From a virus, in IMG/VR virus record IMGVR_UViG_3300039355_000071: DNA of 64,000 nt. One strand, written 5' to 3'. Under the pieces are notes generated by a model. That model was not told the origin of the DNA, did not search any database, and saw only the letters and a list, made by a program, of their open reading frames with translations. Shown piece after piece: positions 24,166-55,856 of the stretch. Every line of letters begins with the position of its first letter. The stretch's first letter is position 1. Both the position numbers and the translations under genes were made by a program.

Positions 24166-24183
24166 AAATGGGAGGAATTTATT

Positions 24184-32804: not shown

Positions 32805-32959
32805 TACAAGTAAAATTCAAGAGTTGGTAGGTGTCATAGCCTACTGACTCTATCAATATACCATATATAGCAACTATAAAACACAATATATACTATATAT
32901 GGTATATAAATTATATTAGAAGGAAACGCACATTTCTTATGGAATTTCGGAGGTGAAAT

Positions 32960-33139: not shown

Positions 33140-33151
33140 GAGGAGAATAGT

Positions 33152-33313: not shown

Positions 33314-33320
33314 GGTAAAT

Positions 33321-33542: not shown

Positions 33543-33554
33543 GAGATTAAGACA

Positions 33555-34583
33555 ATGACAATTGAACAGATTAAGGACAAATTAAAATCAAAAGAGTATG
33601 ACTTCCTGAGAACAGATAAGAATTTGGGTAACAATATCATTATCTTAACTCTTGGTGGAAGTCATGCATATGGAATGGATAAAGAAGGATCTGATTTAGA
33701 TGTGAGAGGTATTGCACTCAACAGCAAATCAGATATTTTACTTGGAACAGACTTTGAACAGGTCGTAGATGTTGATACGGATACAACTATGTATTCGTTT
33801 AATAAAATGATACAGCTTTTAGCATCAAGTAATCCTAATACAATTGAACAACTTGGCTGTTTGCCTGAGCATTATTTACATTTATCTAAAATTGGTAAAG
33901 AATTATTGGATAATAGAAAAATGTTTCTTTCGCAGATTTGTGTTCATACCTTTGGAGGATATGCTGGTTCTCAGCTCAGACGTATGGAAAACAAGGCTGC
34001 AAGATTGGTTGGTCAGGCAGAAAATGAAGCCTACATTTTAAAAAGCATCAATAATGCAAGATATGAATTTAAAAACAGATATTACCCTCATGAAAATAGT
34101 GATGTGAAACTATATATTGATAAGGCTGTTCAAGAAGGATATGATAGTGAGATTTTTATGGATGTAAACTTGCAACATTATCCGTTAAGAGATTGGGCTG
34201 GCATGTGGAACGAAATGAAGTCCATTGTTAGTAGTTATAGCAAATTTGGTAAAAGAAATGAAAAGGCTGTAGCCCATGATAAATTAGGAAAACATATGGC
34301 TCATTTGATTCGATTATATATGATGTGTATTGATATTCTGGAAAAGGAAGAGATTATCACTTATAGATCAGATGAACACGATTTACTTATGAGTATTAGA
34401 AATGGAGAATATTTAGATGAAAATAGACAACCTATTTCTGAGTTCTATGATTTATTGAATGAATATGAAAAACGTTTTGAATACGCAAAAGAAAATACAT
34501 CTTTGCCTGATAAACCTGATTATAAGAAAATCAATGAATTTAAGATGTATGTAAATGAGAGAATTGTGAAAGGAGATATCTGA
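33555..34583 (+). CDS. Pol-beta-superfamily nucleotidyltransferase
   Basis: LTLGGSHAYGMDKEGSDLDVRGI is the GS-x(9-13)-DxD signature. First gene of the overlapping four-gene operon. Confidence 0.55.
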   Translation: MTIEQIKDKLKSKEYDFLRTDKNLGNNIIILTLGGSHAYGMDKEGSDLDVRGIALNSKSDILLGTDFEQVVDVDTDTTMYSFNKMIQLLASSNPNTIEQLGCLPEHYLHLSKIGKELLDNRKMFLSQICVHTFGGYAGSQLRRMENKAARLVGQAENEAYILKSINNARYEFKNRYYPHENSDVKLYIDKAVQEGYDSEIFMDVNLQHYPLRDWAGMWNEMKSIVSSYSKFGKRNEKAVAHDKLGKHMAHLIRLYMMCIDILEKEEIITYRSDEHDLLMSIRNGEYLDENRQPISEFYDLLNEYEKRFEYAKENTSLPDKPDYKKINEFKMYVNERIVKGDI

Positions 34584-35545
34584 TGGAAATATCAAATAGA
34601 GCAAAAGAAAGATTCTGTAAGGATTGCAATATACCAATTAGATTATTCCAAGAGCCATATTTTTTAGATAGAATTAAGCTTTTTGATGAGTTTTATGGAA
34701 CTGTTGACAAGTGGATTAGATTTGTAAGCGAATTACAGGAGTATAATTGTGAGCAGGATTATTTTGAAGAATATAATCATGTAAAGGATGCAGCTATTAC
34801 AAGTATCAAAGAGTCAGAGGCATATCAGAGATTTAATGCGGAAGATATGAACAAATTCACTGTGATTCATAAAAATTTATCTAATAAAGATATATTTAAG
34901 TCAACTAATACTGGAAGAGTTTTTATCAGTATTGATATGAGAAAGGCTAATTTTTCATCTTTACACGAATATGATAAGAATATATTTCGTGGGACTGATA
35001 CATGGGAAGATTTTATTTCTCAATTCACGGATAACGAACATATTGCAAATAGTAAATATATTCGCCAGGTTATTCTTGGTAATTGTAATCCTAAAAGACA
35101 TATCACCTATGAAAAATACCTTATGGATCAGACATTATCGTTATTATATGACATCATTGGTGAAGAGAGAATTGTATTCTTTTCAAATGATGAGATCGTT
35201 TATGATATGACAACTGCAAGTAATTTGCACATGTTAAGTCTTGTGAGAAATTGTGTTGAAGAAAGATTAAATACAAAATCTAATATTCCATTCAGAGTAG
35301 AGTTATTTTCACTCCACAAGATCAATGGTACTGACGGATACTGTAAGAAAATCTATAAAGAAAATGGAGAATATAATATTGAATTTAAGTGTTTGGATAA
35401 TTATATGATGCCATTCGTACTTAGATATTTCTTAGGAGAAGAAATTACTGAAAGTGACAAGGTGTTCTACCATGAAGGGCTATTGGCAAAGTTTATTGAA
35501 GAACCGAAAATTGAGGTGAATTTGGATGAAAAGATTGAAAATTGA
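34583..35545 (+). CDS. hypothetical protein (320 aa), operon partner
   Basis: ATGG overlap with the upstream stop. Confidence 0.5.
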   Translation: MEISNRAKERFCKDCNIPIRLFQEPYFLDRIKLFDEFYGTVDKWIRFVSELQEYNCEQDYFEEYNHVKDAAITSIKESEAYQRFNAEDMNKFTVIHKNLSNKDIFKSTNTGRVFISIDMRKANFSSLHEYDKNIFRGTDTWEDFISQFTDNEHIANSKYIRQVILGNCNPKRHITYEKYLMDQTLSLLYDIIGEERIVFFSNDEIVYDMTTASNLHMLSLVRNCVEERLNTKSNIPFRVELFSLHKINGTDGYCKKIYKENGEYNIEFKCLDNYMMPFVLRYFLGEEITESDKVFYHEGLLAKFIEEPKIEVNLDEKIEN

Positions 35546-36935
35546 AATTCCATCTGGTGCAAATGAAATTATCCATAGTCTACAAAATAATGGATATGAG
35601 GCATTTTTATGTGGCGGTGCAGTAAGAGATAGTATTCTTGGCAGAACAATTCACGATTATGACATTACAACTTCTGCCACACCAGATGAAATGATGGAAG
35701 TATTCAAGGATAAAAGAATTATTGAAACTGGATTACAACATGGAACTATTACCATTGTAATTGACGGTGAAGGATATGAATGTACCACTTACAGAATTGA
35801 CGGTAATTACTCAGATAGTCGTAGACCTGATAGCGTAACATTTACACGAAATCTTAAAGAAGATTTAAAGCGTAGAGATTTTACAATCAATGCGATGGCA
35901 TACAATGATGAAGTTGGACTTGTAGATCCATTTAATGGCATGGAAGATATTGAGCATTATAAAATCAGATGTGTTGGTAGAGCAGAGGATAGATTTTCAG
36001 AAGATGCTTTAAGGATTTTACGTGCTATTCGGTTTGCTTCACAATTGGGATTTGTAGTTGACTCTGATGTAAGTTTGAACATTCATAAAATGTATAAGAA
36101 TTTAGAGAATATATCTATTGAGAGAATCAACAGTGAGTTCTGTAAAATTGCATTATCAAGCGAGTTTTATATACAGATAGGATTATTCCGTGAAGTATTC
36201 TCGTTATTTATTCCTGAAATAAAAGATATGTTTGATTTTCCGCAGAATAATCCATATCACATCTATGATGTATGGAATCATACAGTACATGCAGTACATG
36301 CTTATGAATGTGATTGTGAACCCGACTTGAATCCAAGGGATTTGATTACATCATTGGCTGTATTTTTTCATGATATTGGAAAGCCACATTGTTATCAAGA
36401 TGGCGAGGATGGCATTAGACATTTCAAAGGTCATGGAAGAGTCAGTGCTGATATGACTGATACAATTATGAAAAGACTTCGTTTTGATAATGATACAAGA
36501 GAAAAGGTAATGCAGCTTGTTTATTATCATGATGCAACTTTTGAAGTGGGTGAAAAGTATATCAAGAGATGGCTCAATAAGATTGGAGAAGAACAATTTA
36601 GAAGATTACTGAATGTTCGTAGAGCAGATATTAAAGCGCAGGCTTATACAGATCAAGAAAGTAGGCTTCAGAAAATTGACAATATCGAATATATCTTAGA
36701 GGAAGTTTTACAGAAAGACGAATGTTTCTCACTGAAAGATTTGGCTGTTGATGGCAATGATTTGATTGAGATTGGATATAAGCCAGGAAAAGAAATAGGG
36801 AATACACTGAATTGTCTTTTGCAGTTAGTAATTGAAGGTGTATATCTAAACGAGAAAAGTGAGTTACTTAAATATGTTGAAACAACAAAAGAATGGATGA
36901 AGTTAGGAGAGAATTATAATGGTAAGATTATTTAG
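35526..36935 (+). CDS. cca: CCA-adding enzyme (tRNA nucleotidyltransferase with C-terminal HD domain)
   Basis: LCGGAVRDSILGRTIHDYDITT (GGAVRD plus DxD) and FFHDIGKPH (HD). Confidence 0.8.
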   Translation: MKRLKIEIPSGANEIIHSLQNNGYEAFLCGGAVRDSILGRTIHDYDITTSATPDEMMEVFKDKRIIETGLQHGTITIVIDGEGYECTTYRIDGNYSDSRRPDSVTFTRNLKEDLKRRDFTINAMAYNDEVGLVDPFNGMEDIEHYKIRCVGRAEDRFSEDALRILRAIRFASQLGFVVDSDVSLNIHKMYKNLENISIERINSEFCKIALSSEFYIQIGLFREVFSLFIPEIKDMFDFPQNNPYHIYDVWNHTVHAVHAYECDCEPDLNPRDLITSLAVFFHDIGKPHCYQDGEDGIRHFKGHGRVSADMTDTIMKRLRFDNDTREKVMQLVYYHDATFEVGEKYIKRWLNKIGEEQFRRLLNVRRADIKAQAYTDQESRLQKIDNIEYILEEVLQKDECFSLKDLAVDGNDLIEIGYKPGKEIGNTLNCLLQLVIEGVYLNEKSELLKYVETTKEWMKLGENYNGKII

Positions 36936-37842
36936 CCACAGTGATTTAGACGGAATCGGTTGTGGTATTTTAGCACAACTTGCATTTGGTAAAGATAATG
37001 TAGAAATTTCATATTGTGATTATGACAATATTGATTCAACTGTAAAGAAATATTTGGAAATAGAACAGGACGACACAATTCCAATTTATATTACCGATAT
37101 TCGTGTCAATGAAGAAACTGCTGAGTTGCTGAATAAAAGAGGCAATGTTCAGTTATTAGATCATCATCCAACAGCTCTTGGATTAAATAAGTATGATTGG
37201 TGTGATGTAGTTATCGAAGATTCCAAAGGAATTAAAACATCGGGAACTATGTTGTTTTATCATTACTTAGGTATGAATGGTTGTCTGAGTGAAGAGTTAG
37301 AGAATAATAAAGCGTTAGAGAGATTTGCTGAACTTGTGAGAGATTATGACACTTGGAGATGGTCAGAACTCGGTGATGAAGGTGTTATTTGTAAGCAGGT
37401 AAATGATTTATTATATCTTTACGGTAGAGATGATTTTATTCATTGGTGCATTTCAGAAATCCATGATGAGGTATTTCCAAGATTATATGCTAAAGATGAG
37501 GTTATTCTGAAGATTAAGCAGGATGAAATTGATAGATATATCGAAGAGAAGAATGAAACTATGTTTACCAGTCCTATGTGTGGTAAGGTTTGTGGTTTTG
37601 TATTTGCAGATAGGTTTGTTAGCGAATTAGGTAATAGACTTTGTAAAATGCATCCTGAAATTGATTTTGTGGCTATGATTGATATTGATGGTTGTACGGT
37701 ATCTTATAGAACCGTTAAAGAAGATATTGATCTTGGTAAAGATGTAGCAAGTTTATTTGGTGGCGGTGGTCATCCAAAAGCTGTTGGTTTAGAATTTAGT
37801 CAGAATATTAAGTCGAAAGTTATTGAGGAAATTTTTGAATAG
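36919..37842 (+). CDS. DHH/DHHA1 phosphoesterase (NrnA-like nanoRNase / pAp phosphatase family)
   Basis: SHSDLDGIGCG (motif I), LLDHHP (motif III), GGGGHPKAVG (DHHA1). Confidence 0.7.
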   Translation: MVRLFSHSDLDGIGCGILAQLAFGKDNVEISYCDYDNIDSTVKKYLEIEQDDTIPIYITDIRVNEETAELLNKRGNVQLLDHHPTALGLNKYDWCDVVIEDSKGIKTSGTMLFYHYLGMNGCLSEELENNKALERFAELVRDYDTWRWSELGDEGVICKQVNDLLYLYGRDDFIHWCISEIHDEVFPRLYAKDEVILKIKQDEIDRYIEEKNETMFTSPMCGKVCGFVFADRFVSELGNRLCKMHPEIDFVAMIDIDGCTVSYRTVKEDIDLGKDVASLFGGGGHPKAVGLEFSQNIKSKVIEEIFE

Positions 37843-37854
37843 TGAGGTAATAGA

Positions 37855-38052
37855 GTGAATAAAAGCAAATTTACATATCCAAAATGTCCATATTGCAATG
37901 AAGAATATCAAGATGGAGTTATGGAATATGATTTGATGAATTTAGTAACTCAAGGTTGGTGCAAAGAAGTAAACGTAAAATGTCATAGTTGTGGTGAGTA
38001 TTTCAAAGTGAAGGCACACATTACTTATTATGGTTCAAAGTTAGCGAGGTAA
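37855..38052 (+). CDS. zinc-ribbon protein
   Basis: CPYCNEE...CHSCGEY. GTG start. Confidence 0.4.
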   Translation: MNKSKFTYPKCPYCNEEYQDGVMEYDLMNLVTQGWCKEVNVKCHSCGEYFKVKAHITYYGSKLAR

Positions 38053-38056
38053 AAGA

Positions 38057-38281
38057 GTGTTAGATTACAGTAATGCAGATTTCCCTAAAGAAACTTATTA
38101 CATAAGACATCCAAATCGCATATATTTTCCTACAGATTTTTATGATGGTGAAAAAATATTCTATTATGGAAAACATACTAAACCAAGTAGTAATGCGAGA
38201 GGATATAGATGGTATCGAAATGTGCATGGTTTAATGAAACTTGTTCATTGGACTGATATTAAACATAGTAAATTATTTTAA
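38057..38281 (+). CDS. small hypothetical protein
   Basis: GTG start after GCGAGGTAAAAGA. Confidence 0.35.
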   Translation: MLDYSNADFPKETYYIRHPNRIYFPTDFYDGEKIFYYGKHTKPSSNARGYRWYRNVHGLMKLVHWTDIKHSKLF

Positions 38282-38365
38282 AGATAGTTAATATAAATAG
38301 AGAATAATCTAATATAGAAGTAATTCTATTCACGGCTGATCAGCCAAATTAAGCGAGGTGATAAA

Positions 38366-38665
38366 GTGAAGAAGTATTGGGAAACAGGTAAAAAGAATGA
38401 TTTTGGTAAGGAATGTTATAAATTACATTTTAGTCAATTTTATGAAGAAGATGATGAAAATGTAGTAGCTGGTTTTGTACAAGATGAGGCAGACGAAAAC
38501 ATATTTATATATGTATCAAAAGAACTAAATGTTGAATATGATACATTGTTTGCAGACAGTATAGAAGATGCAAAGCATCAAATCGAAGACATGTTAATAG
38601 ACCATTGGAATGATGAGATTGATTATTTAGAAAATCGAATTAAATCATTTCAAGACGAAGAATAA
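38366..38665 (+). CDS. hypothetical acidic protein
   Basis: GTG start after GCGAGGTGATAAA. Perfect palindrome GGCTGATCAGCC upstream. Confidence 0.4.
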   Translation: MKKYWETGKKNDFGKECYKLHFSQFYEEDDENVVAGFVQDEADENIFIYVSKELNVEYDTLFADSIEDAKHQIEDMLIDHWNDEIDYLENRIKSFQDEE

Positions 38666-38858
38666 TCATATATAGAAATTTCTATCTTGGCGATTCAGCC
38701 AAAATTTCCAAATAAAAGTAACAAGAAATATTTTTTTCCTATGGTTTTAGCAGACGTGTTAATTCCATAGAATTTTACAACAAAATAAGTAAGAAGAAAG
38801 GATTTAACAGTAACTCCTAGGTAAAAATGATTGCGCAATCTCTGTAGATTAAAAGATT

Positions 38859-40364
38859 TTGACAGAGAATAAAGAAAAAAATAATTATTGTGAGTTAAGT
38901 GTAATTGAGCTTTGTAGTGGTATTGGTGCGCAGATGAAGGGAATTGATAATACTCATCTATTTAATGCAAATATGATTGCAACAGCAGATTTAGACAAAG
39001 AAGTAGTAGTTAGTTATGCTGCAATGCATTGTGGTTTGACTAATGAGATGATTGAAAACTATGAAGATTATCCAAGCAAAGAAGAAATGGTAAGACAGCT
39101 TACAGATAAGAGACTTGGATATGATTTTAAAAAAGATGTTCCGTATGATTGGGAAAAACTTTCACGAAAGAAGAACAAGACAAAAGGTATTGAGAAATAT
39201 TGGTTAGCAGACCATATTTCACATAATCTTGGCGATATGATGCAGATTGAGTCACTGCCATATAGTGATTTACTTACATACTCGACTCCATGCACAGATT
39301 TGTCAATCGCCGGTAAACAGGAAGGATTAAAGTGGACATGTCATGATTGTGGTTGTGAATATGATCCATCAGAATTAGATGTAGATACTCGTTATACTTG
39401 CCCTAATTGTGGCAGTCACAACATTAAATCAACTCGTTCAGGTTTATTGTATGAAGTTGAGAGACTTCTTGTAAAAGCAAAAGAGAATAACACATTGCCA
39501 AAGTATTTGCTTATGGAGAATGTAGATGCTCTTGTATCAAAGAAGTATATTGACAGTTTTAAGGATTGGCTGATTCGGCTTGATAACTTGGGATATAACT
39601 CATATTATCAGACAATCAATGCAAAGAACACAGGTGTTCCACAGAATCGTAATAGAATCTTCTGTATCTCTATTCGTAAGGATATTGATACCAAGTCTTT
39701 TGAATTTCCACAGCCTTTTGACACAGGAATCAGATTAAAGGATTTATTAGAAACAGATAGCAGTGTTTTGGCGAAATATTTCTTATCTGATGAAGTACAG
39801 AAAAGACTTCAGATAACAGATCCAAAATTTAAAAAAAATATTGTTGGCACTACAAAACCTGAATTCAGAACTATCGGTCAGAGAGATTTAGTTTATCAGC
39901 AGGATTCAGTAATGGGTACTTTAGTGGCAACTGATTATAAACAGCCAAAACAGATTCTTGCAGATTCAAATAATATAAAAAGACTTTTTAATATTTATGG
40001 TGAAAATAAAGGAACTGGATTCGCAGGAAATGTTTGGGACAAAGATTATATTTCTCCAACAATAACAACATGCCAGGGAGGAAATCGGCAACCAATGGTC
40101 GAAGAAGATAGAGACAATTTAAGAGTTGTGAGAAAGCTCACACCAAAAGAGTGCCACAGGCTCATGGGATTCGATGATATTGATTATGAGAACTGTAAAG
40201 CAGTTGGAATGTCTGATACCCAGGGATATAAACAAAGCGGTAACAGTATAGTGACAACTTGCATCTCTTTGTTGATTGAGCATTTATATAAGGCTCAGTA
40301 TGACAATACATATATTTGTACAGATGAGAAGATGGCAAATTTTCATCAGCCACAAGTGGATTAA
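38859..40364 (+). CDS. DNA (cytosine-5)-methyltransferase with an inserted zinc ribbon
   Basis: Motif I ELCSGIGAQ, IV PCTDLSIAGK, VI ENVDALV, VIII QNRNRIFCISIRKD, X GNSIV. CHDCGCEY..CPNCGSH lies between motifs IV and VI. TTG start as annotated; the true start is uncertain. Confidence 0.75.
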   Translation: MTENKEKNNYCELSVIELCSGIGAQMKGIDNTHLFNANMIATADLDKEVVVSYAAMHCGLTNEMIENYEDYPSKEEMVRQLTDKRLGYDFKKDVPYDWEKLSRKKNKTKGIEKYWLADHISHNLGDMMQIESLPYSDLLTYSTPCTDLSIAGKQEGLKWTCHDCGCEYDPSELDVDTRYTCPNCGSHNIKSTRSGLLYEVERLLVKAKENNTLPKYLLMENVDALVSKKYIDSFKDWLIRLDNLGYNSYYQTINAKNTGVPQNRNRIFCISIRKDIDTKSFEFPQPFDTGIRLKDLLETDSSVLAKYFLSDEVQKRLQITDPKFKKNIVGTTKPEFRTIGQRDLVYQQDSVMGTLVATDYKQPKQILADSNNIKRLFNIYGENKGTGFAGNVWDKDYISPTITTCQGGNRQPMVEEDRDNLRVVRKLTPKECHRLMGFDDIDYENCKAVGMSDTQGYKQSGNSIVTTCISLLIEHLYKAQYDNTYICTDEKMANFHQPQVD

Positions 40365-40681
40365 GTTCTGCTTGTGGTGATAAGCCACAGTTAGTTGGAG
40401 GTATTGGTGAGATAAATTTTGGAAAGCAATTTCGCCAGGGTAATAGGGTATATGATTCAGACCATGTAGCAATGTGTTTATTAGCACAGCCTGTAGGTAA
40501 TGCTGGTGGATTTAGTTATTTATATGTGGTTAGAAAATAAAATGGAGAATAATACAATAAGTAGTTGAAAACAAAATAGCATATACAATATATAGTATTA
40601 AATAATTACAACAAATACTATATATTGTATAAAAATCAAGACCGAAAGAAAGCGGATTTTCTTACGATGAAAGGAGATAAT

Positions 40682-41404
40682 ATGTATCCAGAATACGATG
40701 ATTTTTATGAGCCAAGTGAAGTCGAAATGTTTTTTGATGAAATGAAAGAAAAGTTCAGAGAGATTTTACGTGAAGATGTAAACTCTGAAATCAGCAGATT
40801 AACAAAAGAAAATATAGAATTAAGGCAAAAGGTTAAAGAGTACAATGATAAAAATTTAGATTTTTCTTGTAGAGAAAGAGATTTGCAGTACAAGATAGAT
40901 AATTACAAACGAGAGGTAGAAAAAGACTTTTACAATAAAACAATGGAAGAAGTTTTTGAGAAACTTTTAGAAGACTCAGAAGTGTGGTACGCAGAACGTG
41001 TTCCTCATGAGAAACCAAAATGTAATTTATGCAACGAAGAAAGAAAACTTGTTGCAGTATATCCAAATGGTGAAACTGTAACCAAGGAGTGTGAATGTTC
41101 TCGACCAATATATATCTATGAGCCAGTTATTTCATTGAATAAGGAGATTAAATTTCATAAAGCATATAAACCAAAGTGCGGCGATAAAAAGAAAGTCTAT
41201 TTTACTAAAAATCACGAGCCAAACAAGGATTATGCAGATGCGTATGATTATTACAGTGAATTCAGAATAGAAAATATTTTTGATGATTTTAATGATGATG
41301 TAATTGCATATCACAATGGTAAAAGATATGGAGAGAAAATCGCATTCAGAAGTAAAGAGGCTTGTCAGAAATATTGTGATTGGCTTAATAAGGAGAATAA
41401 GTAG
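40682..41404 (+). CDS. hypothetical protein (240 aa)
   Basis: RBS GAAAGGAGATAAT. Preceded by the inverted ATACAATATATAGTAT motifs. Confidence 0.5.
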   Translation: MYPEYDDFYEPSEVEMFFDEMKEKFREILREDVNSEISRLTKENIELRQKVKEYNDKNLDFSCRERDLQYKIDNYKREVEKDFYNKTMEEVFEKLLEDSEVWYAERVPHEKPKCNLCNEERKLVAVYPNGETVTKECECSRPIYIYEPVISLNKEIKFHKAYKPKCGDKKKVYFTKNHEPNKDYADAYDYYSEFRIENIFDDFNDDVIAYHNGKRYGEKIAFRSKEACQKYCDWLNKENK

Positions 41405-41602
41405 ATGGTAGACATTCAGTGTAAAGACGGAAAATATATTATTGAGGCAAGGATTCATAGTGAAGTTGATACAAATGATATTGCAAAAGTGCAGGAAAGA
41501 TTTACTTCTGATTGTGCTTATGAGTTTGCAGAAGCTATGAGAGAAGCAGTAAACGTTAGCCATTTGGTAATGAAAGAACAAAGAAAAGAGGTAACAAAAT
41601 GA
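41405..41602 (+). CDS. small hypothetical protein (65 aa)
   Basis: RBS AAGGAGAATAAG. Confidence 0.45.
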   Translation: MVDIQCKDGKYIIEARIHSEVDTNDIAKVQERFTSDCAYEFAEAMREAVNVSHLVMKEQRKEVTK

Positions 41603-42111
41603 GCAAAACATTAATCGTAGTAGATATGCAGAATGATTTTATTGATGGCTCACTCGGTACAAAGGAAGCACAGACAATTGTATCGAATGTAGCAAAGAAA
41701 ATTAAGGAGTACAAGGATGCTGGTAAACAGGTAATCTTTACAAGAGACACACACCCTGAGAATTATTTGGAAACATATGAGGGTAAGCATCTTCCTGTTA
41801 CTCACTGTGTAAAGAATACTGTTGGTTGGCAGATTTCAGATAGGTTAGATTTTGATATTGAGAACGATATTCTGATTGATAAGCCTACTTTTGGTTGGTT
41901 AAACTGGAAGGATTTTGGATTTGAAAGTGTTGAGGTTTGCGGATTATGCACCGACATCTGTGTGGTTTCAAATGCACTTATTATTAGAGCAAATTATCCT
42001 GAGATTGATATTACAGTAGATGCAAGCTGTTGTGCAGGTGTCACACCTGATACTCACAATGCTGCATTAGCAACTATGAAGATGTGTCAGATCGAAGTGA
42101 TTGGAGAGTAG
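41599..42111 (+). CDS. isochorismatase-family cysteine hydrolase (nicotinamidase PncA-like)
   Basis: LIVVDMQNDF and CGLCTDICV (catalytic Asp and Cys context). 170 aa. Confidence 0.6.
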   Translation: MSKTLIVVDMQNDFIDGSLGTKEAQTIVSNVAKKIKEYKDAGKQVIFTRDTHPENYLETYEGKHLPVTHCVKNTVGWQISDRLDFDIENDILIDKPTFGWLNWKDFGFESVEVCGLCTDICVVSNALIIRANYPEIDITVDASCCAGVTPDTHNAALATMKMCQIEVIGE

Positions 42112-42114
42112 AAT

Positions 42115-42951
42115 ATGATTAAAATTAATGGCGAAATTGTAACAATCAACAAGTTTCCAGATGGAACACCAAGAGTAAATATTGATATAAACAACATTGA
42201 GGAAGACTCTTATGATGGCTCTCCTTGTATTTGGATTGAATGGATTTATGAGAGTAACGATGAGATATTTTATCTGATGTTAGTAAAGAAACATCTTGAA
42301 AGATTTTTTACTAATGTGGATTATTATTTGTCTCTTCCATATATTCCTAATGCACGAATGGATAGAGTAAAAAATGATGATGAAGTATTCACATTGAAGT
42401 ATTTTTGCGATTTTATCAATTGGTTAGGATTTTCATCAGTTTATGTTTTAGATGCTCATAGCGATGTTTCTACTGCATTACTCAATAATTGTGTAAAAGA
42501 AAATCCAAAAGAGTATGTTGATAAAGCTATTTCAAAGATTGGTATGAGAAATCTTGTACTTTATTTCCCAGATGCAGGTGCAGCTAAGAGATATTCAGAT
42601 TTATTTCCTGAGTTACCATATTGTTATGGTGAAAAGAAGAGAGATTGGAAGACTGGTAAAATCCTTGGATTAGACATTAGAACAAATGGTATTGATTTGA
42701 AAGATAAAGCTGTGTTAATGATTGATGATATTATCGCATATGGCGGTTCACTTTATTATAGTGCAGAAGAATTGAAGAAACATGGTGTAACTGAGATTTA
42801 TGCATATGCCACTCATACAGAGAATTCAATTCTTAATAAAGAAAAAGGAACATTAATCAAATCTTTGGAGAATAATACTGTGAACAGATTATTTACCACA
42901 AACAGTTTATTTAATGGTAGTCATGAAAAAATTACGGTTATGGAGGTTTAA
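42115..42951 (+). CDS. ribose-phosphate pyrophosphokinase (Prs)-like enzyme; candidate ADPR-pyrophosphate synthetase (Adps) of a NARP1 module
   Basis: KFPDGT (N-terminus), VLDAHSDV, FPDAGAAKRY, VLMIDDIIAYGGSL (PRPP-binding-like loop). Confidence 0.65.
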   Translation: MIKINGEIVTINKFPDGTPRVNIDINNIEEDSYDGSPCIWIEWIYESNDEIFYLMLVKKHLERFFTNVDYYLSLPYIPNARMDRVKNDDEVFTLKYFCDFINWLGFSSVYVLDAHSDVSTALLNNCVKENPKEYVDKAISKIGMRNLVLYFPDAGAAKRYSDLFPELPYCYGEKKRDWKTGKILGLDIRTNGIDLKDKAVLMIDDIIAYGGSLYYSAEELKKHGVTEIYAYATHTENSILNKEKGTLIKSLENNTVNRLFTTNSLFNGSHEKITVMEV

Positions 42952-42955
42952 AATT

Positions 42956-44416
42956 ATGGATAACACAATGGCTTTATTATTATCAGATACTTATAAACAG
43001 TGTCATGATCGCATGTACCCAAATGGTTTGACTAAATTGGTGTCGTATTGGGTGCCTCGAAAATCAATGTTAGAGAATCAGAATGAAATGGTTTTCTTTG
43101 GATTGCAGGCATTTATCAAAGAATATTTAATGGGAGATTTTCAGAAAAATTTCTTCGATTTATCGGAAGATGAGATGTTAACTCTTTATACAGATTCGAT
43201 GGATGTACAGATTGGTAGAGACAACTATGATTTAGATAAAATTGTAGAGCTTCACAGATTAGGATATTTACCACTTGAGATTAGAGCATTGCCAGAAGGT
43301 ACACTTGTTCCTATGGGTGTTCCTTGTATTGAGATTACAAATACGGATGATAAATTTGCTTGGCTTGTTCAGTGGATTGAATGTATTCTTCAGGTAGAAT
43401 TATGGAAACCTTGTTGTCATGCAACTATCGGTCATATGTATCGTGAAATTGCAGATTATTGGTATAACAAGACAACAGACGGATTGCCTGGAAATATGGC
43501 TTGTGCGGATTTTGGCATGAGAGGAATGTCTTGTATGGATGAAGCTACAAGATGTTCAGCATCATGGTTGCTTTCATTTAATAAGACATCTACAATTCCA
43601 GCAATTAATTATATTGATAGATATTACAATGCCGATTGTAAGAATAATGGTATTGGAATCGGTGCTGTCTCAACTGAGCATTCTGTAATGGGTGCTAATT
43701 TCTCAATTGATGGAGATGAGATTACGTTTGTTAAAAGACTTTTAACAGAGTTATATCCAAATACATCATTTAGTATGGTTTCAGATACTTATGATTATTG
43801 GAATATGGTAAATAATATTCTTCCACAGTGTAAAGAAGAGATTATGAATCATAATGGAAAGCTCTTGGTTCGTCCTGATAGTGGTGATATTGTAGAGATT
43901 TCAGTTAAAACAGTTGAAAGGTTGTGGGAGATTTTTGGTGGTTCTGTAAATGGTAAAGGTTATAAGGTATTAAATCCGCATATCGGTATTATTTATGGTG
44001 ATGGCTGCACACTTTCTAATGTAGAAACTATTTGGAAAGAATTAGAAAAGCGTGGTTTCGCAGCTAATAATATTGCTTATGGTGTAGGAGCTTTTTGCTT
44101 CACTGCAATCGTTGAAAACGGCAAGATGATTGTTGTTACAAGAGATACTTTTGGTATTGCAATGAAAGCTACATATGGAGTAATTGATGGCAAGAAGTTA
44201 ATGATTTTCAAAGATCCTAAGACAGATACAAGTCACTTAAAGAAATCTCATAAAGGATGTTGTAGAGTATACGATGATAACGGTGAATTAAAGTGTCAAG
44301 ATCAGTTACTTGAAATGAGTGATAACAGTTTACTTACTACCGTATTTAAAGATGGAGAATTAGTAAGAGAAGATACATTTGCGGATATTAGAAACAGAAT
44401 GTACGGAGGTAAGTAA
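42956..44416 (+). CDS. NAMPT-family type II phosphoribosyltransferase; candidate nicotinamide-ADPR transferase (Namat)
   Basis: N-terminal LLLSDTYKQCH (the D-[ST]-Y-K motif of NAMPT/PncB). About 487 aa from the RBS-supported ATG 42956. Confidence 0.65.
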   Translation: MDNTMALLLSDTYKQCHDRMYPNGLTKLVSYWVPRKSMLENQNEMVFFGLQAFIKEYLMGDFQKNFFDLSEDEMLTLYTDSMDVQIGRDNYDLDKIVELHRLGYLPLEIRALPEGTLVPMGVPCIEITNTDDKFAWLVQWIECILQVELWKPCCHATIGHMYREIADYWYNKTTDGLPGNMACADFGMRGMSCMDEATRCSASWLLSFNKTSTIPAINYIDRYYNADCKNNGIGIGAVSTEHSVMGANFSIDGDEITFVKRLLTELYPNTSFSMVSDTYDYWNMVNNILPQCKEEIMNHNGKLLVRPDSGDIVEISVKTVERLWEIFGGSVNGKGYKVLNPHIGIIYGDGCTLSNVETIWKELEKRGFAANNIAYGVGAFCFTAIVENGKMIVVTRDTFGIAMKATYGVIDGKKLMIFKDPKTDTSHLKKSHKGCCRVYDDNGELKCQDQLLEMSDNSLLTTVFKDGELVREDTFADIRNRMYGGK

Positions 44417-44877
44417 TGATTAAAATTATTGATGGAGACTTACTCACTTCGAACACTGATATTATTGCACACCAGGTTAATTGCAAAGGTGCTTTTAATT
44501 CTGGTGTTGCAAAAGCGATCCGTGATTATGATGTGCAAGTATATAAAGATTATCATAGTTTTTGTTCGATTAATACACCTGAACAATTATTGGGTTCTGT
44601 TAGATATTTTCAGTCTAATATTGACGCAAGAATATATGCAAATTTATTTGCACAAAAATCATATGGCTATGACGGAAAACAGTATACAGATATTGACGCT
44701 TTAAGAAAATGTTTTGAAAATTTGAGATCATATGCAGTTTTGGAAAATATGAGTATTGCAATGCCATATAAAATTGGATGTGTTCGTGGCGGTGCAAATT
44801 GGGAAGAAGTGTATCAAATGATAAATGATATATTTGAAAATTGTAATATTGAATTATGGAGGTTAGATAAAGGATGA
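44416..44877 (+). CDS. macro-domain (ADP-ribose-binding/processing) protein
   Basis: IIDGDLLTSNTDIIAHQVNCKGAFNSGVAKAI. Confidence 0.65.
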   Translation: MIKIIDGDLLTSNTDIIAHQVNCKGAFNSGVAKAIRDYDVQVYKDYHSFCSINTPEQLLGSVRYFQSNIDARIYANLFAQKSYGYDGKQYTDIDALRKCFENLRSYAVLENMSIAMPYKIGCVRGGANWEEVYQMINDIFENCNIELWRLDKG

Positions 44878-45632
44878 GTAATTTTGATGCTAAGAAAGTA
44901 AAGAATGAGATCGTAGAGTGGATTAGAGATTGGTTTGAACAGAATGGTAAAGATTGTATGGCAGTAGTTGGAATTTCTGGCGGTAAGGATTCAAGCGTTG
45001 TTGCTGGCTTATGTTGTGAAGCTCTTGGAAAAGATAGAGTTTTTGGTGTAATGATGCCACAGGGAGAACAGCCAGATATTGATTATTCTCGAATGCTTAT
45101 AGACCATCTTGGAATCGACAGTTGTGTTGTAAATATAGGCAATACAGTTCGCACTTTAAAGCATGAGATTAAACCACAGTTGGGAGATCATTGGTCAAAG
45201 CAGACTTCTACAAATCTCCCTGCTCGTATTCGTATGACTACGCTTTATGCAGTATCGCAGACAGTAAATGGTCGTGTCGCTAATACGTGTAATCTTTCAG
45301 AAACATTACTATCTTGGGAAACCAGATGGGGTGATGCAGTTGGAGATTTTGCACCAATTAGCGACTTAACAGTAAAAGAAGTGAAAGCTATTGGATATGA
45401 ACTTGGATTGCCAAATGAATTAATCGAAAAAATTCCGTCTGATGGACTGTGTGGAAGTACAGATGAAGATGCATTGGGATTTAAATACTCTGTTATGGAT
45501 AGATATATTAGAACAGGCGAGATTGACGACAAAGATATTAAAAAGAAAATTGATAATCGAGTAGAAAAATATCGGTTTAAGAGAATGCCTATTCCTTATT
45601 ATAAAACAGGTATGGAAAGATATGTAGACTAA
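44874..45632 (+). CDS. nadE: NH3-dependent NAD+ synthetase
   Basis: VVGISGGKDSSVVAGL (PP-loop SGGxDS). 252 aa. Confidence 0.7.
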   Translation: MSNFDAKKVKNEIVEWIRDWFEQNGKDCMAVVGISGGKDSSVVAGLCCEALGKDRVFGVMMPQGEQPDIDYSRMLIDHLGIDSCVVNIGNTVRTLKHEIKPQLGDHWSKQTSTNLPARIRMTTLYAVSQTVNGRVANTCNLSETLLSWETRWGDAVGDFAPISDLTVKEVKAIGYELGLPNELIEKIPSDGLCGSTDEDALGFKYSVMDRYIRTGEIDDKDIKKKIDNRVEKYRFKRMPIPYYKTGMERYVD

Positions 45633-45633
45633 A

Positions 45634-46833
45634 ATGGCAGAAGACTTAACTAATTTACAATTTGGAAAATTAACAGTCATCAAACGTGGAGACAACGATA
45701 AAAGCGGACATGTGAGATGGTGGTGTAAATGTGACTGTGGCAACCCTAAATTGATTTTAGTTGCCGCAGGACATTTAAAATCAGGACATACTCAATCATG
45801 TGGATGTATAAGAAGAGATAATATTAAACCACAAAAGAATTTAGAAGGAAAAAGATTTGGGAAATTAATTGTAAAAGAATTTCTTGGTATAAAAAATCAT
45901 AGATCATTATGGAGTTGTGATTGTGATTGTGGTAAGAAAATTAACGCTTTATCATCGTCTTTAACTTCTGGAAAACTTAAGTCATGTGGATGTTTATCTT
46001 CTGTAGCTGAGTTCGAATTAAGCCAGTTCTTGACAGATGAACAAATTATATTTGATACGCAATATAAGTTTGATGATTGTAAATATAAAAGAAGATTGCC
46101 ATTCGATTTTGCAATTTTTCATCCACAAAATAAGAAACTCTTATTTTTAATTGAACTACATGGAGAACAGCATTATTTTCCGTTTACATTTAATAGTGAG
46201 TCTGATATGCAAAAGAAGGAAAATTTTTTGCATAGAAAACATTTGGATAAATTAAAAGAAGATTATTGTAGTGAAAATAATATTCCATTGTTAATTATTA
46301 GATATACAAATTTTCAAACAAAAGAAAAAATTGTAAAAGGGTTTTATGAAAAGCTCTTGCAAAAGAATATTACATTTGATGATTATATATTTTCATCAAA
46401 ACAAATAAAGGATGATTTACAAGTAAAGCATAAACGTGTCTATAAAAGAAAAGTAGTCCAAATAGATATACCCAACAAGAATATTATAAGAGAATATAAT
46501 AGTATGGAAGAGGCATATAAGATAACTGGAATATCATCTGGACAGATTTCGGATTGTTGTAAGGGTAATTGTAAAACAGCAGGTGGATATGCCTGGGCAT
46601 ATAATAACGGAAACGTTAATATTGAAGAAGTAATTAAACGTGCAACAATTCCAAATAGAACAAATGCAGTTGTGATTTTCCAAAAAGATAAAAATGGAAA
46701 TATTATAAAAGAGTGGCAAAGTATAACAGAAGCAGCACATTCTTTGGGAGTAAGTCATCAAGGTATTCAAGCGTGTTGTTCAGGAAAGCAGAAAACTTGT
46801 AAAGGATTTGTTTGGAATTATAAGAAAGATTGA
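45634..46833 (+). mobile_element. homing-endonuclease-like gene: zinc-ribbon repeats, DUF559/Vsr-like PD-(D/E)xK nuclease core, C-terminal NUMOD-like DNA-binding repeats
   Basis: FGKLxV..W.C.CDCG..SCGC repeated twice. LPFDFAIFHPQNKKLLFLIELHGEQHY. Duplicated EY.S..EA...TGIS...I..CC.GK.KT..G..W.Y modules. Confidence 0.45.
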
Positions 46834-47603: not shown

Positions 47604-47876
47604 ATGAAGAAGAAAATTTTAGCAGTTGTATTAGGATTAACATTATGTTTTGGAATGACTGGATGCCAGTCTGTTACAAAAGATTTTGGTGGATCAACAA
47701 CAATTGAGCTTGAACCAAACCAGAAACTTGAAGAGATTACATGGAAAGATGATTCATTATGGTATCTTACAAGACCTATGACAGATGACGACATTGCGGA
47801 GACACATACATTTCAACAGTCATCAAATTTTGGAGTGTTTGAGGGTACTGTAACTATTATTGAGAAGAAGGAATAA
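47604..47876 (+). CDS. lipoprotein (90 aa)
   Basis: MKKKILAVVLGLTLCFGMTGC is a signal peptide plus lipobox. Confidence 0.55.
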   Translation: MKKKILAVVLGLTLCFGMTGCQSVTKDFGGSTTIELEPNQKLEEITWKDDSLWYLTRPMTDDDIAETHTFQQSSNFGVFEGTVTIIEKKE

Positions 47877-48021: not shown

Positions 48022-48423
48022 ATGAAAAAGAAAATTTTAGTAGTAATGTTAGCCGTTGGAATGGTAGCAACATCATTAACTGGGTGTGCTTTTGAAACTG
48101 AATCAAAAAAGGTTACATATAATATGAAACAGGAAGCTGAGAACTTTAATGTTCTTAGAAGATTTGCAGTAATTAACACTCGTACTGATAAGGTTGAGTT
48201 TGAAATGATTGGTGCATTTAGTAGAGAGGATGCGACAAATGATCAGGTGACGCTTGTTGTAGAGATGGAAGATGGTACATATAAGAGACATATTATTGGG
48301 CTGAATGAAGATACAATGTATGTCATTGAGGATTTGGGTGGTGCTGAAGTGAATAAGTACAAGTATGAGGTTAATTATATTCCAGAGTCAATTGTACCAT
48401 TTGAGATTACAGATAAAAAGTAA
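48022..48423 (+). CDS. lipoprotein (133 aa), paralogous N-terminus
   Basis: MKKKILVVMLAVGMVATSLTGC. Confidence 0.55.
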   Translation: MKKKILVVMLAVGMVATSLTGCAFETESKKVTYNMKQEAENFNVLRRFAVINTRTDKVEFEMIGAFSREDATNDQVTLVVEMEDGTYKRHIIGLNEDTMYVIEDLGGAEVNKYKYEVNYIPESIVPFEITDKK

Positions 48424-48467: not shown

Positions 48468-48905
48468 GTGAAAATTAAAGATAAGATACGAGACAAGTTA
48501 AGACAGTGGTTATTGGCAGATGAGTTATTAAAATTTGATTTAGCCGAAGATAAATATAAAGAAGCCAGAAAATTACTTACATATTCTAATGCCGAATTAT
48601 CAAGAGCAATAGACCAGCATAGTGCTTCATTTAAATTAGTCGATGATTGTCATCAGCTTATGAATTCTATGATGGACGTTGGGACAGATGTAGGATTTCA
48701 TTCTGATGACCATTCGTGGGCAGTTATATGTATTAAAGGTCATCCAGAATATTTGAAATTTATTCCATTGTCGCATAAAGACGCACGAGATGTATTAGAT
48801 TTTCTGAAACGATTTAGATATTCAGACAGAGTTGTAGATTCTCCATTTGCGTTTAGAGATATGATTGATCATTGTATTATGGAAAATTCATTTTTTGAAA
48901 AATAA
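48468..48905 (+). CDS. hypothetical protein (145 aa)
   Basis: GTG start after GGGAGGTAAAGCA. Confidence 0.45.
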   Translation: MKIKDKIRDKLRQWLLADELLKFDLAEDKYKEARKLLTYSNAELSRAIDQHSASFKLVDDCHQLMNSMMDVGTDVGFHSDDHSWAVICIKGHPEYLKFIPLSHKDARDVLDFLKRFRYSDRVVDSPFAFRDMIDHCIMENSFFEK

Positions 48906-49410
48906 AGTTATAATGAAATTTTGGTTTCGGATGGTTAGTCCAAATATCTGTAGGCTTCATCCGAGTATCACCGTATTTACAATATGTAACCGTATATCGT
49001 GGAAGGTCTTGCATCCAAGTCATCTTTCTCATACCACCACGAGGATTTTCAATAAAATAATAAGTTGGGTTTAATTCTTTGATTAAAGAAACGACATGCT
49101 GATCAGTTGCATCACAGAATTTTGCATAATCACTGATTGGATCAAGATTACCAGTCTCAGGATTCTTTCTTCTATGATGACTTATTGCAGCAATACTGAA
49201 CGTTGTACAGTCAGGCGATGCCCAGATAACATCGGGATGACCAAACTTTTCTAAGATATCTTGTGCAGTTACTTGACTAATATCTGCATATAAATCAATG
49301 TTTTCAAAATCTTTATTCCATTCTACGCTGTACACTTCATGACCTCTTGCTTCAAAAGCTTTGCCAATTGAACGTGTGCCAGCAAATAACTCTAATACTT
49401 TAATAGTCTC
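48877..49410 (-). pseudogene. C5-cytosine DNA methyltransferase, N-terminal half only (truncated, split or pseudogenised)
   Basis: Minus-strand frame encodes ETIKVLELFAGTRSIGKAFEARGHEVYSVEW (motif I F-x-G-x-x-S-x-G), ASPDCTTFSIAA (motif IV), FIENPRG (motif VI). There is no in-frame ATG/GTG/TTG upstream of motif I before the stop. No TRD or motifs IX-X. The far end overlaps a + strand gene. Confidence 0.5.
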
Positions 49411-49882
49411 TTACCGATAGTGGTGCGCACCTTTAACTCATGAGACTATATTTTCCTTTCTTATAAAATTATATCTACATTGTTACTTAGTTTCGTGACA
49501 AGCCAAGAAACCAAAATTTCTGCCTATGTGTAAGAATGGAGATCCATGTCATGTATCAGCTCCAAGAGGAAGTAGAACAGGCACACAAGGATTAAAAGGA
49601 GCAAAAGAAAGAAGTGTAATACCACAGAAATTGTGTGAACACATTGTAGATATTTGCGAAGAAGGACTTGCTGAAAATAATTTACATGACAAGTGTAAGT
49701 CGTGTGATAACAAGTGGTCTTCATTTGAATGTGATATGTGTGAAAATTTCGACATGTATGAGAACAAAAAAGAGAATAATGAGGTGTAACTGATAATTTG
49801 TAAAACTCCAACCTCTGAAATGCCCTAAAATCAAGGCTTTCAGATGTTGAAAAAGCCAAGGAAAACCACGTTTCTTTTGGTT

Positions 49883-54942: not shown

Positions 54943-54965
54943 TTTAATTTAGGAGGATTTTAAGA

Positions 54966-55856
54966 ATGGAATTATTAGGAAGATACATAAATGGTAACTT
55001 TAAAACTACAATTTTTAGCGATGGAACAAAGATCAGAGAGACAGAAGATGATGAGTTTGTACCAGTTTTTGCGGAGAATATGGATATAAAAATTTGTAAT
55101 TTTTGCGATATGGGATGTCCATTCTGCCATGAAGGTAGTACAACAGATGGAAAATTTGGAGATATTTTGAATGAGAAATTCATTAATACACTTCATCCAT
55201 ATCAGGAAGTTGCTCTTGGTGGTGGAGATGCTACAAGTCATCCTGACTTAATTCCATTCTTACAGAAACTCAAAGATAGAAAAGTTATTGTAAACATGAC
55301 GGTAAATCAGATTCATTTTGAGAAGAAACAGGATTTAATCAAAAAGCTTGTTGATGAAAAACTTATCTATGGTCTTGGCGTATCGCTCGTAAATCCAACA
55401 AAGAATTTTATTGAACTTATTAAGCAATATCCAAATGCGGTCATTCATGTAATCAACGGGGTATTAAAACCATCGGACGTAGAAGCTTTAGAGAATAATA
55501 ATCTGAAGATGCTGATTCTTGGTTATAAACATTTAAGACGTGGTGATGATTTTTATTCAGAAGATCATGAAAACATTGTTGTAAAGCAGAATTGGCTATA
55601 TGAAAATCTTGCAGATATTATTGAGAAATTTAAGGTAGTTAGTTTTGATAATCTTGCCATCGACCAGTTAAATGTTAAGAGATTGATGTCTGATGATGAA
55701 TGGAATGAGTTTTATATGGGCGATGATGGAACAATGACTTACTACATCGACATGGTTGAGCGTAAATTTGCAAGAAGCTCAACAGCAGCATTTGATAAGA
55801 GATATGACTTATTGGACTCAGTAGATGATATGTTCCAGAAGATTTTATCTGAGTAA
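54966..55856 (+). CDS. radical SAM enzyme (4Fe-4S, CxxxCxxC)
   Basis: ICNFCDMGCPFCHEG and GGGDATSHPDL (Gly-rich SAM motif). 296 aa. Confidence 0.6.
   Translation: MELLGRYINGNFKTTIFSDGTKIRETEDDEFVPVFAENMDIKICNFCDMGCPFCHEGSTTDGKFGDILNEKFINTLHPYQEVALGGGDATSHPDLIPFLQKLKDRKVIVNMTVNQIHFEKKQDLIKKLVDEKLIYGLGVSLVNPTKNFIELIKQYPNAVIHVINGVLKPSDVEALENNNLKMLILGYKHLRRGDDFYSEDHENIVVKQNWLYENLADIIEKFKVVSFDNLAIDQLNVKRLMSDDEWNEFYMGDDGTMTYYIDMVERKFARSSTAAFDKRYDLLDSVDDMFQKILSE

Follow-up and report, generated by a model that had tools for sequence, protein, structure and literature searches.

Organization of the methyltransferase locus

We examined a 64,000-nucleotide stretch of viral DNA (IMG/VR record IMGVR_UViG_3300039355_000071; hereafter, the window), in which the gene for a small C5-cytosine methyltransferase lies in two pieces on opposite strands, with a perfect inverted repeat at the breakpoints. 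The features on which this description rests are the following.

48877-49404, minus strand: N-terminal methyltransferase fragment in the inverted (OFF) state, running from an ATT through motifs I, IV and VI and a YCxYGDxRxKPTDIWTN block to a tail and a stop
48915-48928: left arm of the inverted repeat (IRa), GAAATTTTGGTTTC, a perfect 14-nt inverted repeat
48929-49506: invertible interior of 578 bp, holding the leader, the start codon and ~165 N-terminal codons
49507-49520: right arm of the inverted repeat (IRb), GAAACCAAAATTTC, a perfect 14-nt inverted repeat
49521-49789, plus strand: detached C-terminal part of the methyltransferase, LPMCKNGDPCHVSAPRGSRTGTQGLKG...ERSVIPQKLCEHIVDICEE followed by a Cys-rich tail

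The minus-strand frame from 49410 to 48880 spans 177 codons from stop to stop (ETIKVLELFAGTRS...SPDCTTFS...FIENPRGG...TNHPKPKFHYNFIFQKMNFP; in another excerpt of the same frame, ETIKVLELFAGTRSIGKAF...SPDCTTFS...FIENPRGG...YCKYGDTRMKPTDIWTNHPKPKFHYNFIFQKMNFP), in agreement with the first-pass annotation of this DNA, which had described motifs I, IV and VI over about 178 residues. It corresponds to the N-terminal ~165 residues of a small C5-cytosine methyltransferase and is matched by PF00145 (E 5.6e-6, 26.4 bits against a cut-off of 22) over profile positions 1-112 of 324 only. The fragment ends in a 12-residue tail derived from the flank, HYNFIFQKMNFP, and a stop. Its description as the only leftward gene also holds: no second gene in this part of the window can credibly be assigned to the minus strand. 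The remaining minus-strand open reading frames (ORFs) of at least 100 residues all overlap longer plus-strand ORFs, and all other Pfam matches among the ORFs scanned fell on the plus strand.

The target-recognition domain (TRD) and motifs IX-X had been reported as missing, which is correct for the minus-strand ORF but not for the locus, since the C-terminus is encoded on the plus strand. When the full-length Bc431v3 homologue was compared with the window by tblastn, residues 6-173 aligned to the minus strand at 49404-48916 and residues 171-221 to the plus strand at 49511-49663 (69% identity, E 1e-19), and the breakpoints of both the N- and the C-terminal half fall inside the two repeat arms. 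The separately encoded C-terminal partner for which a search had been proposed is therefore present, on the opposite strand and 106 bp past the start codon of the N-terminal fragment. It can be called as an 87-residue ORF from ATG 49526, with no visible Shine-Dalgarno sequence upstream.

Reverse-complementing positions 48915-49520 in silico yields one uninterrupted plus-strand frame of 254 codons (...TNHPKPKF joined to LPMCKNGDPCHVSAPRGSRTGTQG...NNEV and a stop), which is collinear with homologues of 211-256 residues and runs in the same direction as all neighbouring genes. Counted from the ATT, the intact gene of this direct state encodes 251 residues. The methyltransferase is the only leftward gene here because the segment is inverted relative to the genes that flank it. 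We consider it practically certain that an inversion between the repeats has split the gene and that the opposite orientation is its intact form; the window probably shows the OFF state of a partly intragenic inverton. The interpretations offered previously, namely a decayed gene, an AquI-like split methylase or a gene repurposed as a regulator, fit the locus less well than a conservative inversion between 14-bp repeats that splits the gene.

Both orientations occur in public assemblies

An IMG/VR scan with the restored protein identified seven contigs of 95-160 kb (L006-L012) in which the 254 residues are encoded without a break and with 100% identity, beside many further near-identical intact copies. 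Three of the seven (L006, L010 and L011) match the left flank of the window at 99.8-99.95% over 2 kb and therefore represent the same phage in the other orientation. Scans specific to each junction recovered 12 direct and 2 inverted contigs from IMG/VR and 12 direct and 3 inverted contigs from the metagenome collection; the representative bacterial genomes scanned gave no match to either junction. The inverted contigs (L086, L087, L100, L109 and L112) have the same breakpoints as the window. Pooled and with the window excluded, the module-bearing loci that were fetched comprise 29 direct and 5 inverted cases, counts that may include duplicates such as L086/L100.

The 578-bp interior of the window shows no differences from that of five direct contigs (L006, L009, L011, L105 and L111) and one inverted contig (L087). 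The remaining inverted contigs (L086/L100, L109 and L112) carry haplotypes other than that of the window. Furthermore, two outer flanks, aagttataat/GAAA and aaaagcacag/TAAA, each occur with both states.

A broader census came from exact-sequence look-ups of the state-specific products in a collection of 15 billion proteins, with the following counts.

Direct state: 229-residue product, the gene-caller version of the intact gene; 441 contigs; DAV57622.1
Inverted state: 152-residue N-terminal fragment from GTG 49335, with tail HYNFIFQKMNFP; 106 contigs; DAH04738.1
Inverted state: 87-residue detached C-terminal ORF; 153 contigs; DAH04840.1

The inverted state thus makes up around one-fifth of the assemblies (about 20-25%), with a direct-to-inverted ratio of roughly 4:1. 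Its product occurs in unrelated studies and samples, from different assemblers, and in at least five different downstream gene arrangements, while other inversion-specific protein tails (P0005 and P0006/P0015) point to flips beside further left flanks. At least two independent flips are required by these data and several more probably took place; that flipping has occurred repeatedly is, in our judgement, very probable.

Two further observations concern the carrier contigs. Some are 300-670 kb long, compared with 95-217 kb in IMG/VR, and could represent a prophage in a bacterial contig, a chimeric assembly or larger relatives. In addition, a chimeric protein of 381 residues found on 6 contigs (P0031) joins the first ~127 residues of the product of ORF 36919-37842 to the ...ETIKVLELFAG of the methyltransferase, which implies another rearrangement ending just upstream of the ATT.

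The inverted repeats and the invertible segment

With its arms included, the flipping segment measures 606 bp (48915-49520). The inversion is conservative, as the breakpoints lie within the repeats and no sequence is gained or lost. In the direct state IRa is non-coding and IRb encodes (P)KPKF within the methyltransferase gene (codons ~160-164); in the inverted state the minus strand of IRa encodes ...KPKF, the last residues of the N-terminal fragment that are homologous to the family. The 14-mer has internal dyad symmetry (GAAA-TTTTGG-TTTC). Whichever the state, variant bases of the left arm (outer positions 1 and 4) remain linked to the left flank, the pattern expected from a crossover limited to the inner ~10 bp.

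Repeats of at least 14 bp between the upstream region and the coding sequence are found in this clade only, other lineages of the family being at chance level, and among the lineages compared inverted copies were likewise seen in this clade alone. Nearly all clade members keep IRa at the left edge of the module, and the DNA to the left of IRa is unrelated between mosaic genomes. Homology among the mosaic relatives (L006-L021 and L100-L114) starts exactly at IRa, with at least ten unrelated left flanks abutting the same 14-mer, which makes IRa the boundary of a module as well, and possibly a hotspot of recombination.

A scan of the window for perfect 14-mer inverted pairs placed 100-2000 nt apart returned one other pair.

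54961-54974 and 55249-55262: perfect 14-bp inverted pair spanning the 5' end of a radical-SAM gene (54966-55856)

Considered as a second inverton, this pair gave no contig with the flipped junction in IMG/VR and 23 contigs with the junction as it stands in the window; it is probably a chance repeat. Separately, 14-mers with at most two mismatches from GAAATTTTGGTTTC are enriched in the window, with 10 occurrences (both arms counted) against 1.85 expected and none of 100 shuffles reaching 10. These repeat-like 14-mers, which lie at 885, 1472, 14800, 16335, 41011, 51468, 55865 and 59617, are in several cases intergenic, and no wider motif was seen to be common to their surroundings.

Protein family, predicted fold and probable effect of the flip

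The closest deposited relatives of the methyltransferase are proteins of 221-222 residues named "C-5 cytosine-specific DNA methylase I" in Bacillus cereus-group myophages, with 65-73% identity. Among deposited phages, the window has no close DNA relatives except in the methyltransferase itself. The family is large, with at least 8000 homologues at E up to 1e-5, and its members typically have 211-220 residues, reaching 256 in the clade of the window and its nearest relatives. Because the deposited relatives have only 221-222 residues, the short length is a natural trait of the family.

Profile searches with the restored protein gave a full-length match to PHROG 757, "DNA methyltransferase" (E 2.2e-46), and a PF00145 match of 24.9 bits (cut-off 22), again over profile positions 1-112 of 324 only. 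The TIGR00675 score was far below its cut-off, and a sequence search of the PDB with the methyltransferase returned no significant match. The catalytic motifs can be read in the sequence as ELFAGTRS (I), SPDCTTFS (IV) and FIENPRGG (VI), which are variant forms of the canonical motifs; for instance, the motif IV cysteine is present in the context PDC instead of PCQ. Across 50 homologues F7, A8, G9, D65, C66, E119, N120 and P121 are invariant, and the severed C-terminal block, CKNG.PCH.SAPRGS.TGTQG.KG..ERS.IP..LCEHI, is invariant or nearly so.

An AlphaFold2 model of the restored protein reached a predicted local distance difference test score (pLDDT) of 77.9 and a predicted template modelling score (pTM) of 0.77. 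The core is confident and helix 199-210 is modelled at pLDDT ~95; the Cys-rich C-terminal extension of ~35 residues that is specific to the window's clade is not confident. Foldseek placed the methyltransferase domains of DNMT3A/B first (E 7e-9), with M.HaeIII at 1.6e-8 and M.HhaI at 1.5e-7, and the template modelling scores (TM-scores) were moderate (0.43-0.54). A TRD of ordinary size is absent, as the stretch between the core and the C-terminal helix is only ~35 residues long (160-195, with low to medium pLDDT). As modelled, the protein is a minimal-TRD enzyme, as in DNMT3. The inverted state would be expected to yield an inactive 175-residue fragment, because the conserved C-terminal ~85 residues are severed, including the helix that packs onto the catalytic domain in the model.

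Start codon and leader

Upstream of motif I, the segment carries a leader whose elements are listed here together with the putative start codon.

49402-49404, minus strand: ATT, putative start codon, occupying the position of the ATG or GTG of relatives
49403-49410, minus strand: 3' arm of the outer leader stem, GAGACTAT, overlapping the first two bases of the ATT
49422-49431: perfect 10-bp palindrome GGTGCGCACC (core TGCGCA/GCGC), placed at the apex of the leader hairpin and a candidate for an operator, a methylation site or both
49442-49449, minus strand: 5' arm of the outer leader stem, ATAGTCTC, between a Shine-Dalgarno-like AAAGGA and the ATG of a mini-ORF

No ATG, GTG or TTG lies between the in-frame TAA (49413-49411) and motif I, as had been noted from the sequence at first pass, and the first canonical start is GTG 49335, past motif I. 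Most relatives begin with ATG AAA GTA (MKVLELFAG), and a clade at 89-91% (L022-L033) has GTG at that position. An ATT stands there in the clade of the window and in L018 and L034, all of which are without an in-frame canonical start. This feature is conserved in at least 17 contigs, intact alleles included; its conservation throughout the close relatives rules out an error. Translation probably starts at the ATT (49404-49402), AUU being a documented weak initiation triplet (PMC5499595). The deposited proteins DAV57622.1 and DAH04738.1 start at the internal GTG 49335 and are without the first 25 residues, which include motif I, the S-adenosylmethionine-binding motif. The intact allele is therefore annotated 25 residues short, at 229 residues, because the ATT start was not recognised.

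Two other accounts of the missing start were rejected. A frameshift, as a cause either of the truncation or of the missing start, is at odds with the recurrence of the same sequence in at least 17 contigs, and a start is not regained by any single frameshift. A translational hop, a +1 shift at the stop of the mini-ORF or stop recoding would still leave the in-frame TAA at 49413-49411 in the way, and the other genes are normal in genetic code 11.

The leaders of six lineages (the window, L004, L018, L022, L025 and L034) share one design: an AAAGGA box, a 5' arm, usually a mini-ORF of 2-7 codons, a perfect GC-rich palindrome, and a 3' arm that abuts or overlaps the start codon, the stem overlapping the start in three of the lineages. 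In the window (49402-49460, minus strand), the AAAGGA box lies at 49459-49454 and the mini-ORF, ATG AGT TAA, at 49441-49433. The arms of the outer stem (5-9 bp) covary, from ATAGTCTC/GAGACTAT in the window to ATAGTCTT/AAGACTAT in L025 and GTCCCAT/ATGGGAC in L004; in L018 (GTACC/GGTAC) and L034 (TGTTCAC/GTGAACA) this position is taken by stems of unrelated sequence. In shuffle tests anchored on the start codon, the stems of four lineages reached p values of about 0.003-0.008 and those of two were weak; all six independent minimum-free-energy folds contain the outer stem (5-8 bp, with compensatory changes) and a small apical hairpin on the palindrome. None of the Rfam 15 covariance models gave a relevant match to the leader, with E values of up to 10 considered. 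The stem could either carry the distant Shine-Dalgarno-like box close to the start codon or block access to that codon, and a DNA-level operator could fit the same leader data.

One lineage differs in its mini-ORF. In L018 the mini-ORF MGKLRST is in frame with the methyltransferase, with a single TAG between them, and a variant of it (P0035) has CAG (Gln) at that codon and thus a fused N-terminal extension. This arrangement may represent readthrough or an alternative start in that lineage.

Palindromes, a second C5-methyltransferase and possible restriction pressure

The perfect palindrome with a GCGC core that had been noted beside the gene is present, one position to the right of where it had been placed (49422-49431, not 49421-49430). 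The sequence GGTGCGCACC occurs once in the window and in none of 100 window shuffles. A second palindrome of the same length accompanies another methyltransferase gene.

38830-38839: second 10-bp palindrome, ATTGCGCAAT, with a TGCGCA core, 19 nt upstream of a TTG start
38859-40364: full-size C5-methyltransferase of 501 residues with a TTG start (PF00145, E 2.9e-46)

In other lineages palindromy is kept by compensatory changes (GCTGCGCAGC and AGCTGCGCAGCT), and GGCGCC is also found. The leader of the full-size C5-methyltransferase (38790-38861) is of the same design, with AAGAAAGGA, a mini-ORF ATG and ATTGCGCAAT, and the AAGAAAGGA box precedes both palindromes. TGCGCA occurs three times in the 64 kb, in GGTGCGCACC, in ATTGCGCAAT and in the motif I codons of the 38859-40364 gene, and every one of these sites is found at the 5' end of one or other C5-methyltransferase gene. 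From these comparisons, the earlier suggestion that the palindrome serves as a control site gains support, both from the compensatory changes and from the second TGCGCA-core palindrome in front of the other C5-methyltransferase.

Across the whole window, whose GC content is 32.4%, several short palindromes are strongly avoided relative to Markov expectation: CGCG occurs 0 times against 15.5 expected, GGCC 0 against 26, CCGG 9 against 21, GCGC 11 against 25.8, CTAG 33 against 70 and GATC 93 against 197. This avoidance suggests heavy restriction pressure on the phage.

Candidate recombinase

Pfam scans of all sizeable ORFs identified a single site-specific recombinase in the window and no serine invertase.

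19651-20715, plus strand: Xer-like tyrosine recombinase (PF00589, E 1.4e-26), candidate invertase

Its best NCBIfam matches are XerC, XerS and XerA, all far below their cut-offs, and matches to FimB/E-type invertases are weak. The gene is present on module-bearing contigs of both states and also on many other contigs (152 relatives); it belongs to the core genes that are widespread in this phage group, so that its co-occurrence with the module says little. The catalyst of the flip could be this Xer-like enzyme, a host recombinase, or a process on short repeats that is independent of any recombinase.

About 500 bp from the inverton, ORF 48022-48423 matches Pfam Phage_VG64 and PHROG 478 ("recombination directionality factor"). 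This label looks doubtful, as the product carries a lipoprotein-type signal peptide and would be a secreted lipoprotein; signal peptides of this type are found in both small ORFs 48022-48423 and 47604-47876 (...LTGC/...MTGC).

A proposed switch and its alternatives

Taken together, our findings point with good probability to a partly intragenic inverton that switches a small orphan C5-methyltransferase between an intact ON state and a split OFF state. In the direct orientation, the gene would be intact and co-oriented with its neighbours, and thus ON; in the inverted orientation, its N-terminal part would point left, take its end from the flank and be cut from the C-terminal ~85 residues, leaving an OFF form that is presumably catalytically dead. 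Flipping would be frequent and reversible, catalysed by a site-specific recombinase, the candidates being a host enzyme and the Xer-like tyrosine recombinase of the phage. Such a switch could act as a hedge, given that C5-methylation would shield the genome against Type II restriction and become a liability under methylation-dependent Type IV restriction. Translation would most likely begin at the ATT, with a covarying hairpin, which has the GCGC-core palindrome at its tip, that either brings the Shine-Dalgarno-like box near the start or occludes it. Whether the element amounts to an enzyme-catalysed, adaptive phase-variation switch is a question on which we would give even chances at best. 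The most specific form of the proposal is tentative and would more readily prove wrong than right: a recombinase-driven switch that places both genotypes in each burst as a bet-hedge, with additional tuning in the leader through the ATT, the covarying hairpin and a shared GCGC-core palindrome that senses methylation or binds a common regulator.

Several points weigh against a programmed switch. No invertase gene is adjacent to the segment, and the only recombinase of the window is 29 kb away, Xer/integrase-like, and among the core genes of many related phages from which the module is not known. True phase variation is here deduced from polymorphism between samples, in assembled consensus sequences only. 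A 14-bp inverted repeat is not improbable per se in an AT-rich sequence of 64 kb, where two such pairs are present, and the second pair (54961/55249) is an underpowered negative control, with 0 of 23 contigs flipped against 2 of 14 for the methyltransferase inverton in the same collection. The single-sequence statistics of the leader stem are also modest (z -0.7 to -2.3).

Some of these points favour a recurrent rearrangement that is not programmed, in which a fortuitous 14-bp repeat, through short-homology recombination or template switching and with no dedicated enzyme, inverts part of a dispensable gene. The absence of an adjacent invertase is in keeping with this explanation, as are the shortness of a repeat that has one arm in constrained coding sequence, the position of the window in an accessory region of mosaic make-up and frequent rearrangement, and the chimeric P0031 fusion, which demonstrates that other rearrangements strike the methyltransferase gene. 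We nevertheless regard it as unlikely, though not negligible, since about 20-25% of contigs are inverted for an identical haplotype and in several backgrounds, which implies a flip rate that is high relative to point mutation. The non-coding IRa, moreover, is conserved across the clade although the sequence to its left is unrelated, and the comparable 14-bp repeat elsewhere in the genome was never seen flipped.

The other explanations concern what the split gene does, or whether it is real. A functional AquI-like enzyme, in which the N-terminal fragment (motifs I-VIII) and the 87-residue C-terminal fragment assemble and the flip alters regulation, would be consistent with a breakpoint that separates the motifs of the catalytic core from the C-terminal block, in topological terms the place where M.AquI is split, and with a C-terminal fragment that begins with an in-frame ATG (49526) on the strand of the surrounding genes. 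Such complementation is possible but improbable, because that ATG has no Shine-Dalgarno sequence before it and its Met is a conserved internal residue of single-chain homologues; the C-terminal part is thus no conserved second subunit. No relative has two co-oriented genes, all the junction-spanning homologues listed are single-chain proteins of 206-290 residues, and the tail of the N-terminal fragment varies with the flank and is therefore not a conserved interface. A decayed pseudogene, or a one-off inversion fixed as a relic, would account for a truncated ORF with no canonical start, and yet both halves are free of disabling mutations and identical to the intact allele, intact alleles are also without a canonical start, and the inverted state is polyphyletic, so that we hold this to be very improbable. 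Least credible of all is an assembly or sequencing artefact. Inverted repeats can confuse assemblers, but this repeat, at 14 bp, is shorter than the k-mers in several contig labels (k119, k127 and k141), and identical junctions recur across studies, assemblers and sources (IMG/VR, SPAdes-style NODE_ and MEGAHIT-style k141_ contigs in ENA, and Logan), which makes the artefact implausible. The frameshift or sequencing error that had been raised as a possible refutation is likewise contradicted by an arrangement that recurs base for base in many independent assemblies.

Relation to known systems

Phase-variable methyltransferases and invertons are bacterial bet-hedging devices, and to our knowledge programmed inversions in phages are known essentially for tail-fibre host-range switches. 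In Mu (Gin) and P1 (Cin), two functional tail-fibre C-termini are switched by an adjacent serine invertase with an enhancer and Fis. The locus described here resembles the Mu G-segment and P1 C-segment in being an invertible segment of a phage with one repeat within coding sequence, and differs from them in that it lacks an alternative exon, has a DNA-modification gene as its target and lies in a window without any serine recombinase. Both orientations coexist in Mu and P1 populations, as both occur here among public assemblies.

M.AquI is encoded by two co-oriented genes, both of which are translated. As in M.AquI, the motifs of the catalytic core stand on one side of the break in the present gene and the C-terminal block on the other; unlike in M.AquI, inversion has placed the parts on opposite strands, and the single-chain form is the commoner allele. 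The leader recalls the hairpin-bridged ribosome-binding sites of T4 genes 38 and 25, in that a stem-loop could bring a far Shine-Dalgarno box near the start codon, although in three lineages the stem overlaps the start codon and could occlude it instead. With the small phage C5-methyltransferases (PHROG 757, and the proteins of Bacillus cereus-group Bastillevirinae such as Bc431v3 orf172), the protein shares 65-73% core identity, its length class, its motifs and the CKNG..CHVSAPRG..TGTQG..IP..LC.H block. The window's clade is set apart by its ~35-residue Cys-rich extension, the inverted repeats, a structured leader and an ATT as start.

Partial-intergenic and intragenic invertons with a premature-stop outcome were defined by Chanin et al. 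(PMC10028968), who validated a Bacteroides thetaiotaomicron thiC inverton with 11-bp repeats. The methyltransferase inverton agrees with these in its short repeats, in having at least one arm in coding sequence, in the truncated protein, in the two alleles per locus and in the gut microbiome setting. It differs in that it belongs to a phage genome instead of a bacterial chromosome, targets an orphan DNA methyltransferase, is known from assemblies of different samples, and has a flipped segment that comprises two-thirds of the gene together with its start and leader. Epigenetic invertons include the Type I hsdS shufflons (PMC7672463), and gene-altering inversions have been reported in restriction-modification, BREX and DISARM genes (Milman et al., PMC9881135). 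There too, inversion alters the methylation capacity of the carrier genome, and tyrosine recombinases are the typical catalysts. However, the hsdS and restriction-modification inversions swap specificity domains between functional alleles, usually with an adjacent recombinase; in the present case a Type II-like C5 enzyme is simply left whole or disrupted (ON/OFF), and there is neither an alternative cassette nor an adjacent recombinase.

Our literature search found no description of an ON/OFF inversion of a phage orphan methyltransferase. If the proposed switch is real, it would extend phase variation to viral epigenetic self-protection, through the ON/OFF inversion of a phage's own DNA-modification gene, and give a concrete, testable way into the question of how phages survive in hosts whose restriction systems attack either unmethylated or methylated DNA. 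The locus also matters in practice, as automated annotation misdescribes the locus in hundreds of public contigs, as a 152-residue "methyltransferase" and an 87-residue hypothetical protein, and inverton surveys that ignore viral contigs would miss such elements.

Accessory genes of the window

The window belongs to a large phage, with relatives on contigs of 85-217 kb, and carries accessory genes in two regions, 19651-25590 and 31224-46833. They include a MazF/PemK-like toxin (21307-21687), a protein with a GmrSD_N domain (24184-25590), a flotillin/Band-7 protein, a CCA-adding enzyme and an I-HmuI/NUMOD-like homing-endonuclease gene (45634-46833). A further set is related to nicotinamide adenine dinucleotide (NAD) salvage and comprises an isochorismatase-family protein, a phosphoribosyltransferase-domain protein, NAMPT and NAD synthase.

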